NCBI GenBank assembly: GCA_002315325.1
Contig: DCGU01000080.1
Location: 19,684-83,683, forward strand
DNA from: Clostridiales bacterium UBA1770
GTDB taxonomy: Bacteria > Bacillota > Clostridia > Oscillospirales > CAG-272
Direction: 5' to 3'
Length of the DNA stretch: 64,000 nt
Shown: piece by piece, positions 1,071 through 54,587 of the stretch
How positions within the stretch are numbered: position 1 is the stretch's first letter
Layout of the letters: every line of letters begins with the position of its first letter
Program-made: the position numbers and the translations under genes
Notes under the pieces: generated by a model
Told to the model about the DNA's origin: nothing
Databases searched by the model: none
The model's input: only the letters and a program-made list of their open reading frames with translations

Positions 1071-1245
1071 TCAACACGCGATAGCTCTCCACCAAAAAGG
1101 TGACAGTCTGCAGCATATTGTGCTGCACCCCAACCGGACCCGGCGGAAAAACCGAGTGCGGTTTCGGCGGCCGTCCCTTTCCACCCCGCCGGTTTTCCCC
1201 GTTGCGGCAGTGTACTGATGGCGCCCGCGCCTCTACCAAAATGCG
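1071..1245 (-). promoter_or_regulatory. Lysine riboswitch (L-box / LYS element) aptamer
   Basis: The reverse strand reads UUGGUAGAGGCGCGGGCGCCAUCAGUACACUGCC..GGGGAAAACCGGCGGGGUGGAAAGGGACGGCCGCCGAAAC..GCAGACUGUCACCUUUUUGGUGGAGAGCUAUCGCG. The L-box hallmarks AGAGGCGC, AGUA, GAAAGGG, GCCGAA, ACUGUCA and GUGGAGAGC occur in canonical order, as in the B. subtilis lysC and T. maritima L-boxes. Confidence 0.85.
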
Positions 1246-1663: not shown

Positions 1664-1703
1664 ATGCAAAAGTTGAGCCGCCAAAGGCGGCACGGTGATT
1701 ATT

Positions 1704-3596
1704 ATGGCAAAAAAACAGTTCAAAACAGAATCCAAAAAATTGCTCGACATGATGGTTAACTCCATCTACACGCATAAGGAAATCTTTTTGCGCGAGCTCA
1801 TTTCCAACGCCAGCGACGCCATCGATAAATTGTATTTTCGTTCCCTGACCGATGCCGGCGTAACGACGGCCCGGGATGATTACGAAATCCGCATTACAGC
1901 CGATAAAAATGCCCGCCGTCTTATCATCCGCGATAACGGCTGCGGTATGACGCAGAACGACCTGGAAAATAACCTGGGTACCATTGCCAAGAGCGGCTCC
2001 TTCGATTTTAAGCAGAATGAAAAGGGAGAGGGCACCGAAAAGATTGACATCATCGGTCAGTTCGGCGTCGGTTTCTATTCCGCTTTCATGATTGCCGATA
2101 CCATTACCGTAAACAGTTTGGCATATGGTGAAACGCAGGCCTACCGCTGGGAATCCTCCGGTGCGGACGGTTATTCCGTCTCCCCCTGCGATAAAAACGA
2201 CGTCGGTACCGAGGTGATTCTCGATTTGAAGCCCGATACCGAGGACGAAAAGTACAGTGATTATCTGGAAGAGTATCGTCTGCGCGAATTGGTGAAGAAA
2301 TACAGCGATTATATCCGCTACCCGATTCGTATGCTGACCGAGAGCCAAAAGCTGAAAGAGGGCAGCAAGGACGAATACGAAACCGTCACCGAGGATCAGA
2401 CGCTCAACAGCATGGTGCCGATTTGGAAAAAGCCCGAGAGCGACGTCACCGACGACGATTACGCACAGTTCTACCGCGATAAGTTCTACGATTTCGAGGC
2501 ACCGCTCAAGGTGATTCGTCAGAAGACCGAGGGCGTTTCCAACTTTGAGTCCCTGTTGTTCATTCCTTCCCACACCCCGTTCGATTTCTACAGCCGCGAC
2601 TACGAAAAGGGTCTGCAGCTGTACTCCAGCGGCGTGCTGATTATGGAAAAGTGCAAGGAACTCCTGCCCGATTATTTCAGCTTCGTTAAGGGCCTGGTTG
2701 ACAGCGCCGACCTGTCGCTCAACGTCTCCCGTGAGACGCTGCAGCAGGACAGACAGCTCAAGAGTATTGCCAAGGCCGTGGAAAAGAAGATTGCTTCGGA
2801 ACTGGCTAAAATGCTGGAAAACGACCGTGAAAAGTACGAGCAGTTCTATACGGCGTTCGGTACCCAGCTCAAATGGGGCCTGTACAACGATTACGGTATG
2901 CACAAGGATATCCTGCAGGATTTGATCCTGTTCAAGTCCTCCTTCGAGGGCAACTACGTGACCTTAAAGGAATACGTCTCTCGTATGAAAGAGGGACAGG
3001 ATAAGATTTACTATGCAACGGGCGACACCGTGGATAAGATTGCCCTTTTGCCGCAGGCAGAGGCCGTTATCGATCACGGTTTCGAACTGTTGTACCTCAC
3101 GGCCGACGTCGACGAGTTTGCCCTGCAGATGCTGCGCAAGTACGATGAAAAGGACTTCTCCAACGTTTGCAAGGACGACCTGAAACTGTCCACCGACGAA
3201 GAGGCCGAGGCGCTCAAAAAGGAAAACGAGGACAATAAGTCCCTGTTCGACGTCATGCGCGAGGCCATCGGCGGCGACCTGGCATCCGTTCGCTTTACCG
3301 ATACGCTGAAAAATCACCCCGTTTGCCTGTCCTCCGAGGGCGCACTGTCCATCGGTATGGAAAAGACGCTGAACAAGATGCCCGGTAACGAGGAGAACAA
3401 AGTCAAGGCCGAATTGGTGCTGGAAATCAACCGTTCTCACGCCATCGCCGAAAAGCTCAAGGCACTGTACGAGAGCGACCAAGAGAAACTCAAGACCTAC
3501 GCCAAGGTTCTGTACGCCAACGCACGCCTTATCAGCGGTATGACGCTGGAGAACCCGTCGGAAATTTCCGACCTGGTCTGCGGCCTGATGCTGTAA
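1704..3596 (+). CDS. htpG: Molecular chaperone HtpG (Hsp90 family)
   Basis: MAKKQFKTESKKLLDMMVNSIYTHKEIFLRELISNASDAIDKL is the canonical Hsp90 N-terminal ATPase signature, and the length is about 630 aa. The ATG at 1704 is preferred over the in-frame GTG at 1695. Confidence 0.95.
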   Translation: MAKKQFKTESKKLLDMMVNSIYTHKEIFLRELISNASDAIDKLYFRSLTDAGVTTARDDYEIRITADKNARRLIIRDNGCGMTQNDLENNLGTIAKSGSFDFKQNEKGEGTEKIDIIGQFGVGFYSAFMIADTITVNSLAYGETQAYRWESSGADGYSVSPCDKNDVGTEVILDLKPDTEDEKYSDYLEEYRLRELVKKYSDYIRYPIRMLTESQKLKEGSKDEYETVTEDQTLNSMVPIWKKPESDVTDDDYAQFYRDKFYDFEAPLKVIRQKTEGVSNFESLLFIPSHTPFDFYSRDYEKGLQLYSSGVLIMEKCKELLPDYFSFVKGLVDSADLSLNVSRETLQQDRQLKSIAKAVEKKIASELAKMLENDREKYEQFYTAFGTQLKWGLYNDYGMHKDILQDLILFKSSFEGNYVTLKEYVSRMKEGQDKIYYATGDTVDKIALLPQAEAVIDHGFELLYLTADVDEFALQMLRKYDEKDFSNVCKDDLKLSTDEEAEALKKENEDNKSLFDVMREAIGGDLASVRFTDTLKNHPVCLSSEGALSIGMEKTLNKMPGNEENKVKAELVLEINRSHAIAEKLKALYESDQEKLKTYAKVLYANARLISGMTLENPSEISDLVCGLML

Positions 3597-40515: not shown

Positions 40516-41844
40516 ATGAATAAACCGATTGCAGCCGTCGTCGGTCGCCCGAACGTCGGCAAAAGCACCTTGTTTAATAAAATTATCGGGGAGCGTCGTT
40601 CCATTGTGGAAGATACGCCCGGTGTGACGCGTGACCGTATTTATGCCGATACCTCGTGGAACGGCGTTGATTTTGAAATCATCGATACCGGCGGTATCGA
40701 ACCCAAAACCGATGATATGATTTTGGCGCAGATGAAACGGCAGGCGCAGCTTGCCATTGAAACGGCCGACGTTATCATTTTCGTTTGTGACGTGCATACG
40801 GGTCCCACGGCCGACGACCGCGATATCGCGGTTATGCTCAAAAAGAGCGGCAAATACGTGGTGCCCTGTATCAACAAATGCGACAAGGTGGGCGACCTGC
40901 CGCCTGAATTTTACGAATTCTATGAGCTCGGATTTGATGCCGATCCCGTGCCCGTTTCCTCGGTACACGGTACCGGTACGGGCGATTTGCTGGATGCGGT
41001 TGTCGCTGCTTTTCCCGCGTTGGAAAAGACCGAAGAAGAGGAAGACGTGATCAAGGTGGCCGTCATCGGCAAGCCCAATGCCGGTAAATCGTCTTTGGTC
41101 AACCGTTTCGTCGGCGCCGAGCGTCAAATCGTATCCCCGATTGCCGGCACCACGCGTGACGCCGTGGATACCTACGTCACGAACGAAACCGGCCGCTTCT
41201 GCTTTATTGATACGGCAGGTTTGCGCCGTCAGTCGCAGGTGAAAGATCCCATTGAAAAATACAGTGTTTTGCGCGCCCACATGGCCGTGGAACGCGCCGA
41301 CGTCTGCCTCGTTCTCATTGACGCCCAGGAGGGTATTACCGAGCAGGACGTCAAAATTGCCGGCATTGCGCACGATGCAGGCAAGGCCTCGATTATCGTT
41401 GTCAACAAATGGGATTTGATTGAAAAGGATAACTCGACGGTCAATACGTTTAATGAAAAAATCGCGACGGCACTGTCTTTTATGCCCTACGCGCCCGTGA
41501 TTTATATCTCCGCCAAAACGGGCCAGCGCGTGTCTTCCCTGTACGAACAGATTGATTACGTCTTCAACCAGTCGCGCACCCGCATTTCCACCGGTATGCT
41601 CAACGACGTACTGGCAGAAGCCACCATGCGTACCCAGCCGCCGACGGATAAGGGCAGACGCCTGAAGATTTACTACATGACGCAGACGTCTGTGGCACCG
41701 CCCACGTTCGTGTTGTTCTGCAACAGCATCGAGCTGTTCCATTTTTCCTACCAGCGCTATATTGAAAACTGCCTGCGGACGACCTTTGGCTTCCGCGGGA
41801 CACCGATTAAAATGATCATCAAAATGAAGGGCGAGGATAACTGA
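40516..41844 (+). CDS. der: Ribosome-associated GTPase Der (EngA), two tandem G domains plus KH-like domain
   Basis: VVGRPNVGKSTLFN and VIGKPNAGKSSLVN G1 motifs with DTGG/DTAG. Confidence 0.95.
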   Translation: MNKPIAAVVGRPNVGKSTLFNKIIGERRSIVEDTPGVTRDRIYADTSWNGVDFEIIDTGGIEPKTDDMILAQMKRQAQLAIETADVIIFVCDVHTGPTADDRDIAVMLKKSGKYVVPCINKCDKVGDLPPEFYEFYELGFDADPVPVSSVHGTGTGDLLDAVVAAFPALEKTEEEEDVIKVAVIGKPNAGKSSLVNRFVGAERQIVSPIAGTTRDAVDTYVTNETGRFCFIDTAGLRRQSQVKDPIEKYSVLRAHMAVERADVCLVLIDAQEGITEQDVKIAGIAHDAGKASIIVVNKWDLIEKDNSTVNTFNEKIATALSFMPYAPVIYISAKTGQRVSSLYEQIDYVFNQSRTRISTGMLNDVLAEATMRTQPPTDKGRRLKIYYMTQTSVAPPTFVLFCNSIELFHFSYQRYIENCLRTTFGFRGTPIKMIIKMKGEDN

Positions 41845-41898
41845 TCACCGACCACCGATTACCGATTACCGATTACCGGTCACCGATCACTGATTACC
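41843..41898 (+). repeat. Eight tandem heptamers GATYACC (GATCACC GACCACC GATTACC x3 GGTCACC GATCACT GATTACC)
   Basis: Read directly from the sequence. The array begins inside the der stop codon and ends about 20 nt before the SD of the next gene. Confidence 0.9.
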
Positions 41899-41935
41899 GC
41901 CCCCAATACCCCGTTTTGAAAGGAGGAACGTCGGT

Positions 41936-42658
41936 ATGCCGTTTACAAAAGACCGCCGTGCAGATGCGCGTGCATTTTGGACGTTGTTGGGACCGGCGAT
42001 TCTTCTGCTGGTGACGGCGGGAGCGCTGATTGCCCTGGCAATGCTCAAGACGCAGTATTATTCCGTTAAAATATTCCTGCTGGTCCTGTCTGCCTGTATC
42101 GTCACGTTTGCCGTGGTCATGATTGTGTTGTGGCGTCAGGTGACCGGCCGCAGTGCTGCTTTTTTAAAAAAATCCGGTGTGCCGGACCCGGGCGTCCATC
42201 ATAATATTTTCCTGTACAATCAGGAAAAGGACGTCGACGTTTCGGCGGATGAATTGACCGTGGACGACGTTGTCAAACGGATGACGGTCATCTTAACCTT
42301 TTTTGCCAAACGCAAAAAACTCAATATCGAGGCTGTTTTGGACACTTCTCCCCGTTCCAAAGTGCCGGCCGTGATGCGCCCGTTATTCGTTTGGGTTTTG
42401 TTGTACAATATTGCCGGTGCGGATAACGAACTGCAGTGGTCGTCTTTCCTTTCCTGCGGAAAGCCTATGGCCGACGCCGTTGCCGCGGTGATGGCGGGGG
42501 AAGATGAGGATTTGGTGCGCCGGCTGCAGCGGGGCGTGGCGCTGTATACCGAACAAAAGAAATACGACGCATTCCGCACCTACATGGTGGAGCATCGGGA
42601 CGCCATCGGCGAACGTATGCTGCAGTACGTGCGGGAGCATATCCGTGAATTTGATTGA
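41936..42658 (+). CDS. Hypothetical membrane protein (two N-terminal TM helices plus a ~150-aa soluble domain), no recognisable family
   Basis: A strong AAAGGAGG SD lies 8 nt upstream and codon usage is coherent. No motif was recognised. Confidence 0.6.
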   Translation: MPFTKDRRADARAFWTLLGPAILLLVTAGALIALAMLKTQYYSVKIFLLVLSACIVTFAVVMIVLWRQVTGRSAAFLKKSGVPDPGVHHNIFLYNQEKDVDVSADELTVDDVVKRMTVILTFFAKRKKLNIEAVLDTSPRSKVPAVMRPLFVWVLLYNIAGADNELQWSSFLSCGKPMADAVAAVMAGEDEDLVRRLQRGVALYTEQKKYDAFRTYMVEHRDAIGERMLQYVREHIREFD

Positions 42659-52784: not shown

Positions 52785-53084
52785 ATGAAAAAATATTGTC
52801 TTGTCGTGACGTATCACGCTGCAGCTGCCGGCGGCCGTGAGGAATTTCTGGAAGAAGTTGCCGCCGAGGGCATCCGTGAAACGGTACTGGCCGAGGAGGG
52901 CTGCCTGAAATACGATTATTATCTTTCCGCGGACGACCCCTGTGAACTGGTTGTGCTGGAGGAATGGACCACTGTCGAAAATCAGCAAGCGCACGTTGCG
53001 CGTCCCCATATGGCGCGCTTGCGTGAAATTAAGAACAAATATATGACGTCCACCGTCCTGCAAACGTATTGGAACGAAGATTGA
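52785..53084 (+). CDS. Antibiotic-biosynthesis-monooxygenase (ABM) domain protein
   Basis: A 99-aa ferredoxin-like fold with the pattern ...CLKYDYY...VVLEEWTTVENQQAHVARPHM. Confidence 0.7.
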   Translation: MKKYCLVVTYHAAAAGGREEFLEEVAAEGIRETVLAEEGCLKYDYYLSADDPCELVVLEEWTTVENQQAHVARPHMARLREIKNKYMTSTVLQTYWNED

Positions 53085-53137
53085 CCGGCTGATTTCTCTT
53101 AAAACGAATAAATAATGCCGTCGGCATAGGGATTGAC

Positions 53138-53167
53138 TTGACAATCCGTTGCTGTTTATGCTATAAT
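53138..53167 (+). promoter_or_regulatory. Sigma-70-type promoter of tRNA-Gln
   Basis: TTGACA (53138-53143), an 18-nt spacer and TATAAT (53162-53167), about 15 nt before the tRNA 5' end. Confidence 0.6.
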
Positions 53168-53182
53168 ATGCGACGGCTATTT

Positions 53183-53257
53183 TGGGGTGTCGCCAAGTGG
53201 TAAGGCAAAGGACTTTGACTCCTTCACGCGTCGGTCCGAATCCGGCCACCCCAGCCA
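53183..53257 (+). tRNA. tRNA-Gln (anticodon UUG), CCA encoded
   Basis: Manual cloverleaf: acceptor UGGGGUG/CACCCCA, D-arm GCC-AAGUGGUAA-GGC, anticodon arm AAGGA-CUUUGAC-UCCUU, T-arm GUCGG-UCCGAAU-CCGGC, discriminator G plus CCA. It is near-identical in layout to E. coli tRNA-Gln. Confidence 0.9.
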
Positions 53258-53260
53258 AAT

Positions 53261-53293
53261 AAAAAGCGTCGGGCAACAGCCCGGCGCTTTTTA
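53261..53293 (+). terminator. Intrinsic terminator after tRNA-Gln
   Basis: AGCGUCGGGC-AACA-GCCCGGCGCU (10 bp, one G-U) followed by UUUUU. Confidence 0.7.
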
Positions 53294-53319
53294 TTTGGCT
53301 GGATTGCTTCGCAATGAAG

Positions 53320-53830
53320 GACCGCTCATTTGCCGCAACTGCGGCAAATGAACGTCCTGCGCTATGCCGGTAATCGTTTTCGCTGCATAATCGGCGCAGG
53401 ACTCGGTCCTGTAATCCGGCCATACCGAACGATTTCGCGTTATTTCATTGGGAGAATTGACCGCTCATTTGCCGCCTTGCGCGGCAAATGAACGTCCTGC
53501 ACGCAGCGAGAGAACCCATTGCACTGAATGAAATGTGCAGGACTAGGTCCTGTAATCCGGCGATACCGATTGTTTGCGCGTCATTTCATTGGGAGCGCTC
53601 CTGCGCTATCCCGGTAATCGTTTTCGCTGCATAATCGGCGCAGGACTCGGTCCTGTAATCCGGCAATACCAAACGATTACGCGTTATTTCATTGGGGGAA
53701 TTGACCGCTCATTTGCCGCCTTGCGCGGCAAATGAATGTCCTGCACGCAGCGAGAGAACCCATTGCACTGAATGAAATGTGCAGGACTAGGTCCTGTAAT
53801 CCGGCCGCCAAACCTGCCGCGCAGGTTTGG
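53320..53830 (+). repeat. Nested tandem array of hairpin modules (two ~244-bp units, each made of two related ~105-140-bp sub-modules)
   Basis: Hairpin A (TCATTTGCCGC/GCGGCAAATGA) occurs at 53326-53351, 53465-53491 and 53709-53735. The long hairpin GTCCTGCRC...GYGCAGGAC occurs four times (53354-53402, 53494-53543, 53598-53646, 53738-53787). Each is followed by NNN-GTCCTG-TAATCCGG. Three of the four sub-modules carry tails ending ATTTCATTGGGRG. There is no SD-led ORF. Confidence 0.85.
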
Positions 53831-53983
53831 AATGAAGAAATGAAGAAATGAAGAAATGAAGACGCTTCGCTAATGCAGAGAAAACAGAGGAGAGAAGGGC
53901 GACTTCGCTTCATTAGGACGCAGTCCGTCTTCATTCGGTGCAAAGCACCATCTTCATTAGCGAGCACTGCGAGCGTCTTCATT
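53831..53983 (+). repeat. Four tandem AATGAAGA octamers followed by four spaced inverted copies (YCTTCATT) separated by small hairpins
   Basis: Octamers at 53831-53862. Complements at 53907-53914, 53928-53935, 53951-53958 and 53976-53983. Intervening hairpins are GGAC-GCA-GUCC and GGUGC-AAA-GCACC. Confidence 0.85.
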
Positions 53984-54077
53984 ACTTGCTCCAAATGCTT
54001 CTCTATACTTGTAATCATCGTCAAGTGATGCTATAATTCTAATAAAAATCATCCCTCTCGTGAAAGGAGCCCTTCTA

Positions 54078-54587
54078 TTGGACGTTCGTCGTATTAACCC
54101 CCGCGAATTCCCCCGTGACGCTTTGCGTGATTTCGACCGGTATCAAAAAGTCACGGACGTTTATCGTTTGATTGACGGCAGGCTGCAGCTTGTTCGTATC
54201 CCCTTTGAAGAGTCTTGGTCCCCCGAACGCAGATTGGAAAAGGCCGATGAAATACGCAGCGGCGACTATACCGTGTTTTGTGCCTATGAGGACGCACACG
54301 TGGTGGGGGAAATCATGCTTGTACCGACGCTTGACAATGGGCGTATGATCGTGGACAGTTTTCACGTTTCCCGCGAATGCCGTCGTCACGGCATCGGCAG
54401 GGCACTGTTTGAAACAGCCAAAGCGGAAGCCAAAAAGAAATGTGCACGGGCCTTATATATATCCGCCTGTTCCGCACGGGAAACAATTGATTTCTATTTT
54501 GCCATGGGATGTTTTATCAGCCCCAACCCGATTCCCGCCTATGCGTTGGATGAACCCTGCGATCTTCAATTGGAATGTTTGTTATAA
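54078..54587 (+). CDS. GNAT family N-acetyltransferase
   Basis: Motif A HVSRECRRHGIGRALFETAKAEAKK. The TTG start at 54078 lies 9 nt after AAGGAG; the alternative is the in-frame GTG at 54060. Confidence 0.75.
   Translation: MDVRRINPREFPRDALRDFDRYQKVTDVYRLIDGRLQLVRIPFEESWSPERRLEKADEIRSGDYTVFCAYEDAHVVGEIMLVPTLDNGRMIVDSFHVSRECRRHGIGRALFETAKAEAKKKCARALYISACSARETIDFYFAMGCFISPNPIPAYALDEPCDLQLECLL

Follow-up and report, generated by a model that had tools for sequence, protein, structure and literature searches.

The described systems closest to the array considered here are the repetitive extragenic palindromes (REPs) of enterobacteria, of which a genome has over 100 copies and whose orientation alternates inside bacterial interspersed mosaic elements (BIMEs) (PMC2817692). 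The array, located at 53320-53805 in a stretch of 64,000 nucleotides of Clostridiales bacterium UBA1770 (contig DCGU01000080.1; the whole stretch is referred to below as the window), consists of four hairpin modules arranged in a 244-bp higher-order repeat. Like the BIMEs of Escherichia coli, it is an extragenic mosaic of different palindromic units and fixed linker motifs situated downstream of genes. Tandem higher-order repeats with two alternating unit types are also possible in BIMEs, and stable hairpins in RNA or single-stranded DNA (ssDNA) are a property of both. In contrast to BIMEs, however, the array occupies a single locus, all of its units are in direct orientation, a GTAG-type motif is absent, and the units are 105-139 nt in length compared with about 35-40 nt for a REP. 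Furthermore, no RAYT is present among the genes annotated at the locus, the genome being represented here by 64 kb. Firmicutes are not known for REP/BIME families. Our tentative reading is that the palindromic modules form a mosaic tandem repeat which is non-coding, specific to this lineage and BIME-like in style, with a passive cis role at most.

Several other known systems resemble the array in part. Tandem small RNA (sRNA) loci (LhrC1-5 of Listeria, Qrr, PrrF1/2) likewise place near-identical structured units of ~100-140 nt side by side in intergenic DNA, but each of those units possesses its own promoter and intrinsic terminator, none of which is detectable in the array, and the array has no match in Rfam. 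Type III toxin-antitoxin (TA) loci share a tandem direct-repeat non-coding array (ToxI) that precedes the gene of a small enzyme, as well as a nearby terminator and possible pseudoknot-like folds. ToxI repeats, however, are about 34-45 nt long and lie between a promoter and a ToxN/AbiQ-type endoribonuclease gene, whereas the units of the array measure 105-139 nt and the downstream gene encodes a generic GNAT with its own promoter. ROOL and GOLLD RNAs are similarly ~500-700 nt in size, non-coding, highly structured and often located beside tRNA genes, in Clostridia and rumen bacteria, but they are not internally repeated, and no cmscan match to them was obtained at E<=10. Remnants of the attachment (att) sites of tRNA-targeted integrative elements resemble the array in that the T-arm and 3' end of a tRNA are partially copied, in direct orientation, a short way past its gene; the copy in the array, by contrast, is imperfect (its loop is larger by 2 nt), short and repeated four-fold inside a larger module, with no integrase or island genes and no exact 3'-end repeat. 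Miniature inverted-repeat transposable elements (MITEs) differ from the array, which has no dispersed copies in the other 63 kb of the window and no target-site duplication beyond the trivial repeat produced by the 244-bp duplication. CRISPR arrays combine repeats of 23-47 nt with unique spacers and cas genes, whereas the conserved parts of the array extend over 90-125 nt, only two distinct interiors of 31-32 nt are used, and no cas gene is found among the annotated neighbours. Since at least one defining feature of REP/BIME, MITE, tandem sRNA, type III TA, CRISPR and all Rfam families is missing, the array is filed here as an intergenic palindromic tandem repeat of no named family. It is not yet to be regarded as a new RNA class.

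The order of parts within a module is GACC(G), hairpin A, a long hairpin, NNN-GTCCTG-TAATCCGG and a 35-nt tail ending in ATTTCATTGGGRG. The four modules, all in direct orientation, and the hairpin that follows them are as follows.

53320-53458, plus strand: unit 1 (hairpin A and B type), with an outer GACCG/CGGTC stem, hairpin A at 53326-53351, long hairpin B at 53354-53402, the competing hairpin CAGGAC-TCG-GTCCTG at 53397-53411, TAATCCGG at 53412-53419 and the tail at 53420-53454.
53459-53597, plus strand: unit 2 (hairpin A and C type), with hairpin A at 53465-53491, long hairpin C at 53494-53543, the core at 53538-53560 and the tail at 53561-53595.
53598-53702, plus strand: unit 3 (B type, without hairpin A, first stem base C), from sequence, inverted repeat and folding.
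53703-53805, plus strand: unit 4 (hairpin A and C type), ending after TAATCCGGC with no tail, from sequence and folding.
53808-53830, no strand assigned: terminal 10-bp hairpin CCAAACCTGC-CGC-GCAGGTTTGG, from inverted repeat and folds.

Hairpin A (TCATTTGCCGC/GCGGCAAATGA, with 11-bp arms) is present in three copies, at 53326, 53465 and 53709, and is missing in module 3. A loop of 5 nt is found in two of these copies and one of 4 nt in the other. The long hairpin, GTCCTGCRC...GYGCAGGAC, starts at 53354, 53494, 53598 and 53738. Its interior of 31-32 nt is either of B type or of C type, two distinct sequences each used twice, and the third stem (53598) has 8 bp and not 9 because its first base is C instead of G. 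The tail ATTTCATTGGGRG occurs in 3 modules, module 4 being without it. A 23-nt core, CAGGACTNGGTCCTGTAATCCGG, is repeated in all modules and occurs exactly four times (53397, 53538, 53641 and 53782); it contains CAGGAC-NNN-GTCCTGTAATCCGG and is near-identical between B-type and C-type modules. When up to 3 mismatches were allowed, a pattern search found no further occurrence of the core in the 64-kb window (0 expected). Tandem Repeats Finder describes 53355-53805 as a repeat with a period of 244, 1.8 copies, 97% matches and a score of 860, and a repeat search located 207-nt copies at 53355-53561 and 53599-53805 that are 97% identical. The periodic tract is laid out as X-Y-X' (207+37+207 nt) and not as 2 x 244, so that its history involved more than one simple duplication. 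An earlier note on this DNA had proposed one module used four times with a 244-bp period, and the anatomy which it gave part by part is borne out almost to the base. The note had also counted one difference between the copies in the A+C part and about six in the B+tail part; the former is correct (53493), while the latter number is five (53366, 53421, 53427, 53435 and 53453), so that the 207-nt copies differ at six positions, or 2.9%.

The array has a strong potential for folding. In comparison with dinucleotide shuffles, the fold of the complete array gives z = -6.4 on the plus strand and -8.0 on the minus strand. ViennaRNA predicts that units 1 and 4 adopt the closed long hairpin, with the outer GACCG/CGGTC stem enclosing hairpin A and the long hairpin. 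The predicted fold of unit 1 has an energy of -51.7 kcal/mol (z -3.4), and its covariance-model self-match is 158.6 bits. Units 2 and 3 are predicted to adopt the open form, in which CAGGAC of the right arm is paired to the GTCCTG downstream of it, and the tail to the interior. Both alternative folds, which had been anticipated as mutually exclusive pairings, are reproduced in single units. In the minimum free energy (MFE) fold of unit 2, the loop AATGAAATG pairs with the tail CATTTCATT; this complementarity between C-type loop and tail, also foreseen, extends over 9 nt for tail 2 and over 8 nt for the other two tails (1 and 3). In the MFE fold of unit 3, the interior GTAATCGTTT pairs with the tail AAACGATTAC, and an additional small hairpin is formed. 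Complementarity between interior and tail is above chance, with p values of 0.001 (B2-T3), 0.02-0.03 (C-T) and 0.06 (B1-T1).

Divergence between the two unit types is unevenly distributed. B-type and C-type units are identical in the arms of hairpin A, in the seven outer pairs of the long stem, in the core and at the end of the tail; the middle of the tail is 83% identical, and flanking segments overall reach about 83-100%. B and C interiors are without significant likeness (p 0.07 direct, 0.24 inverted), the latter value leading to rejection of the B interior as an inversion of the C interior, that is, of an invertible segment. Between the loops of hairpin A in B-type and C-type units, too, no relation can be detected. 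In the long stem, both bases of two inner pairs differ between the types while pairing is preserved, G-C becoming A-U and U-G becoming G-U from B to C. Covarying base pairs, whose absence the earlier note would have taken to tell against its idea, are present in these two instances, both from one independent paralogue comparison. It should be noted that at least two recent changes weaken a predicted pair, at 53366 and at the stem foot (G-to-C, 53354 vs 53598), and that none is compensated. Together with a strain difference that breaks a stem, described next, these uncompensated substitutions look like drift after recent copying.

The array is reproduced with the same copy number in three independent assemblies and is no assembly artefact. 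Two Joint Genome Institute (JGI) metagenome contigs from different samples, L027 and L004, contain it: the former is identical to the window over 6510 nt and the latter differs by one base in 1857 nt. This sole difference is a G/A single-nucleotide polymorphism (SNP) at window position 53483 (position 816 of L004), in the right arm of the second hairpin A, where it turns a C-G pair into a C-A mismatch. Short-read Logan contigs break inside the array, as a repeat would predict. The organism is present in only a few samples, and knowledge of the array is limited to a single locus of one population that is nearly clonal.

The collections searched for relatives evidently lack the rest of this genome, and searches for copies within the genome cover the 64-kb window. 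No module part was found in the other 63 kb by short-word BLAST, mismatch-tolerant patterns or a covariance model. An exact-pattern scan of GTDB representative genomes yielded 0 matches for the core, IMG/VR yielded 0 matches for the core, hairpin A and the long-hairpin signature, and blastn in distant mode gave no match in plasmids and phages. Six-frame translation of the array and of a second repeat region beside it, compared with 5.8 billion proteins, returned nothing at E<=10. Fourteen matches in JGI metagenome contigs were rejected as chance, being confined to a 21-nt pattern in unrelated, mostly apparently coding sequence. The four-unit covariance model, applied to the window and to the loci of relatives, recovered only source units 1, 2 and 4 at full length, unit 3 not being separately reported; it also gave weak minus-strand echoes in the array region and a few marginal sub-threshold matches elsewhere (<=13.5 bits). 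The REP/MITE-like family that the earlier note had considered therefore has no backing, as there is no second copy in the other 63 kb or in the public collections searched, and the absence of homologous modules elsewhere, which that note would have counted against its proposal, holds as far as the data reach. The genes around the array (tsaD, DnaD-like and DnaI-like genes, an ABM protein, GNAT, a GH38 mannosidase and RF3) constitute a housekeeping context. The nearest relatives of the flanking proteins are 53-58% identical and without synteny; the best GH38 relative (58% identity) has a different neighbourhood, and six loci of relatives of the DnaI-like gene (44-53% identity) contain no tRNA and no module. 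Because the array is found nowhere else, a local repeat specific to this lineage is most likely, and a new RNA is not proven.

The signals for transcription and translation around the array were also analyzed. The features that flank it are the following.

53183-53257, plus strand: tRNA-Gln gene (anticodon UUG), from ARAGORN and the Rfam tRNA model (57.2 bits).
53251-53302, no strand assigned: symmetric intrinsic terminator with 24-nt arms, 96% complementary, appearing in the scan as a minus-strand terminator-like site.
53831-53987, no strand assigned: second repeat region, from Tandem Repeats Finder, direct and inverted repeats and folding (z -4.1).
54009-54037, plus strand: GNAT promoter TTGTAA-17-TATAAT with TG, from the consensus scan.
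54078-54587, plus strand: GNAT acetyltransferase gene (Pfam Acetyltransf_1; JGI gene call P0122).

The array begins eighteen bases past the tRNA terminator (53302 to 53320). An A-tract precedes and a T-tract follows the terminator hairpin, so that both strands can use it. The only plus-strand promoter upstream of the array is that of the tRNA (TTGACA-18-TATAAT at 53138-53167, 12/12 consensus matches), and it is cut off by this strong terminator. A consensus scan for sigma-70-like sites found no promoter inside 53303-53830 on either strand. In the same interval there is no terminator-like site (hairpin plus T-run) on either strand, and the terminal hairpin at 53808-53830 is not followed by a T-run on either strand. 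A weak minus-strand promoter-like site with 9/12 matches runs from 54064 to 54036. Bracketing of the array by the tRNA terminator and the GNAT promoter, as described previously, is correct with regard to the terminator, but the promoter does not adjoin the array: it lies ~180 bp beyond it, with the second repeat region between. An array of small RNAs, as also suggested, is not supported, since the promoter and terminator usual for each unit are not detected by the consensus scan, and a set of independent trans-acting sRNA genes is unlikely.

In agreement with previous observations, no open reading frame (ORF) preceded by a Shine-Dalgarno (SD) sequence is credible, only weak 4-mer SD matches being present. 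Small peptides were rejected for the same weak matches and for the frame of the repeated ORFs, which is not conserved because 244 is no multiple of 3. No named RNA class could be assigned, as stated before: cmscan of 52800-54300 at E<=10 gave only the tRNA and spurious terminator-hairpin matches, and a scan of the whole window at the gathering thresholds of Rfam 15 gave only the tRNA and a lysine riboswitch aptamer (1074-1243, minus strand, RF00168, 94.8 bits). For the array, matches are absent for families including ROOL, GOLLD, HEARO, ribozymes, riboswitches, T-box and Y RNA-like. With respect to the downstream gene, the GNAT start is likely TTG at 54078 (SD AAAGGAG at 54063-54069, 8-nt spacer) and not GTG at 54060; the form in the JGI gene call has 169 aa. 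Its product shows weak similarity to streptothricin/nourseothricin acetyltransferases (PDB 5c82, E 1.7e-4). No support was obtained for a TacT/AtaT-type toxin with an RNA antitoxin, the protein being generic or streptothricin-acetyltransferase-like, and no reverse transcriptase, cas or toxin gene is found among the annotated neighbours.

On this basis, we infer an origin by local copying and a cis or neutral role. An ancestral unit of ~130 nt would have comprised hairpin A, the long hairpin, the core CAGGAC-NNN-GTCCTGTAATCCGG and the tail. The T-arm region of the adjoining tRNA-Gln appears to be the source of part of it. Local duplication of this unit would have given rise to B-type and C-type units, after which the 207-nt B-tail-A-C block would have been recopied recently, the copies being 2.9% apart. 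Stems and core would have been kept or homogenised, while the interiors of the hairpins probably diverged past recognition. Short inverted copies of the tail in the interiors would then produce the mutually exclusive pairings. As the interiors hold such inverted copies, these pairings may be at least as likely to result from inverted duplication and palindrome-correcting template switching as from selection for a switch. Regarding function, the lack of a promoter-like or terminator-like site of its own and the position between a strong bidirectional terminator and the next promoter indicate that a passive effect in cis is the most likely function, if there is any. In DNA or in read-through RNA, the stable hairpins would insulate the tRNA gene, which is highly expressed, from the gene that follows. 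REP/BIME clusters of enterobacteria act in a comparable way.

Local repeat growth seems common in this genome, given at least one further duplicated hairpin module and simple repeats in the window. This module, at 1443-1614 upstream of htpG (Hsp90, 1695-3596), has a period of 125 nt and 47-nt cores that are 87% identical. A GCGTGAA...TTCACGC stem surrounds an interior of ~31 nt, the same kind of architecture as in the long hairpins of the array; its fold has z -4.7, no Rfam family matches it, and Logan contig L028 breaks inside it. Eight tandem heptamers (GATCACC/GATTACC variants) occupy 41843-41899, between a der/engA-like GTPase gene and a 240-aa ORF (41936-42658) with no Pfam match. These heptamers may be akin to the WATCACW heptad operators of omega-type ribbon-helix-helix (RHH) repressors.

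A number of points weigh against a local repeat with a passive cis role. BIME-like elements are normally dispersed, and the array has so far been found at one locus only. The same copy number in three samples signifies no visible instability, although these samples are near-clonal. Conserved stems, free loops and two double-sided changes form the pattern expected of a selected structure; the same pattern also fits gene conversion in the similar segments together with palindrome-correcting template switching. Moreover, each of two unrelated interiors is able to pair with the tail of its own unit, and a designed two-state fold could be the reason. Finally, the cis function is purely our inference.

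The rival that we rank next is a transcribed multi-unit structured RNA whose units toggle between closed and open forms; it would belong to a new class and serve for regulation or as a decoy. This is possible, but we consider it doubtful. Its source would be read-through of the tRNA-Gln terminator on the plus strand, or a minus-strand RNA of ~780 nt extending from the site at 54064->54036 to the bidirectional terminator. The latter route has a promoter-like site (9/12) and a terminator usable on that strand. In or directly before the array, however, no promoter-like site is present, a strong terminator stands between it and the tRNA promoter, and the unit ends are without terminator-like sites. 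The very stable folds on both strands agree with such an RNA, as do the two states predicted for the units (closed in 1 and 4, open in 2 and 3) and the conserved stems with free loops and double-sided changes. The difference in length, 4 against 5 nt, between the loops of hairpin A likewise suits a hairpin more than a double-stranded operator, and no Rfam family explains the array. By contrast, the covariation comes from a single paralogue comparison, the recent substitutions and the strain SNP break pairs without compensation, and no homologue was found in the collections searched. The asymmetry of G-U versus C-A is contradictory as to the strand, the extension of hairpin A pointing to the minus strand and the tenth pair of the long hairpin to the plus strand. 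A more specific proposal, that of an undescribed class of modular two-state RNA which would be produced by either of these routes, with units of about 105-139 nt that each carry a T-arm-like tag taken from tRNA-Gln, and which would serve as a decoy or sensor tied to tRNA metabolism or to the adjacent acetyltransferase, is decidedly improbable.

The relationship with the tRNA deserves separate consideration. The T-arm of tRNA-Gln, TCGGTCCGAATCCGGCCA at 53231-53248, resembles the module core. When the core TCGGTCCTGTAATCCGGCCA is aligned with the T-arm and first acceptor bases, TCGGTCC-G-AATCCGGCCA, 18/20 positions agree in all four modules (p 0.0003-0.002, Smith-Waterman with dinucleotide shuffles). 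Only the loop differs, with unchanged stems on either side; it is larger in the core by 2 nt than the T-loop of the tRNA. This likeness suggests that part of the module may derive from the 3' region of the tRNA, by local duplication or as an old recombination scar. Within the T-arm of the tRNA itself (window 53231-53250), the T-loop UCCGAAU has C at position 55, the gene otherwise having a normal score (57 bits). In tRNAs this position is almost always U (pseudouridine 55).

The T-loop and 3'-end sublocations of tRNA genes are classic integrase targets. A tRNA-targeting integrative element could once have carried or displaced a copy of the T-arm and 3' end of tRNA-Gln and then been mostly lost, a remnant with altered T-loop being duplicated in tandem. 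Such amplified recombination scars, which overlap in origin with the local repeat that we prefer, are an unlikely explanation. The array lies immediately 3' of the tRNA gene, and the match of the core to T-arm and acceptor start, with only the loop altered, has a p of about 0.001; this match, however, is short and was spotted by eye owing to the adjacency of the tRNA. Neither an integrase or transposase nor an excisionase or other mobile gene is present within 8 kb on each side, and the window contains no further exact copy of the tRNA 3' end. Beyond the T-arm, neither the remainder of the tRNA nor its terminator shows such likeness (p 0.3-0.4). The tail as a copy of the tRNA terminator was rejected on the same values. 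A pseudo-tRNA array was rejected as well: ARAGORN and Rfam see only the genuine tRNA-Gln at normal and lowered thresholds, two weak minus-strand tRNA calls surfacing only at the 70% threshold.

Tandem MITE, REP/RAYT or IS200/IS605-like ssDNA-hairpin elements are less probable again, to a degree that makes them a poor candidate. Hairpin A would here be an abutted junction of terminal inverted repeats, readable as two inverted ends of 11-14 nt (GCGGCAAATGARCG) that are 4-5 bp apart, and the long hairpins would be subterminal recognition hairpins. The modular mosaic does resemble the composition of BIMEs (PMC2817692, PMC3333891). However, no dispersed copy occurs in the 63 kb and no match in the collections searched, all modules are direct and not alternating, and the GTAG-type foot motif is absent. 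The sole flanking 5-bp repeat is a trivial product of the 244-bp duplication, and no transposase or RAYT is found among the genes annotated around the locus.

Downstream of the array, the second repeat region begins with four perfect octamers, (AATGAAGA)x4, at 53831-53862, followed by a purine-rich spacer (GAGAAAACAGAGGAGAGAAGGG). It ends with four inverted TCTTCATT-type boxes at 53908-53983, the first being CTTCATTA, which alternate with small GC hairpins of 11-17 nt. The arms at 53835-53879 and 53951-53987 constitute a long imperfect inverted repeat. The complete spacer of ~700 bp between tRNA and GNAT should be treated as one repeat-rich unit. Across 53300-54059, AATGAA/TTCATT occurs 17 times in 760 bp, compared with 48 times in the other 63 kb, an enrichment of about 25-fold. 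This enrichment, taken with the perfect AATGAAGA repeats and the inverted boxes (four of each) that precede the GNAT promoter, would suit a double-stranded-DNA array bound by a regulator or partition-like protein at AATGAA-type boxes and palindromes and steering the GNAT promoter or local chromosome structure, but this is the least probable of the explanations. The palindromes have spacers of differing length (4 or 5 nt for hairpin A, 31 or 32 nt for the long hairpin), which dimer operators do not usually show; the genes nearby encode no candidate binding protein, and within the four modules the boxes mostly belong to stems.

Should the array be no more than a local mosaic repeat, it provides an example of hairpin-rich intergenic DNA growing beside a tRNA gene in an uncultured Clostridia-like lineage, and it accounts for the breaks in short-read assemblies at this locus. 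Were the array transcribed and its predicted two-state fold in use, it would represent a new modular RNA architecture with a tRNA-derived element, which would be worthy of biochemical study.

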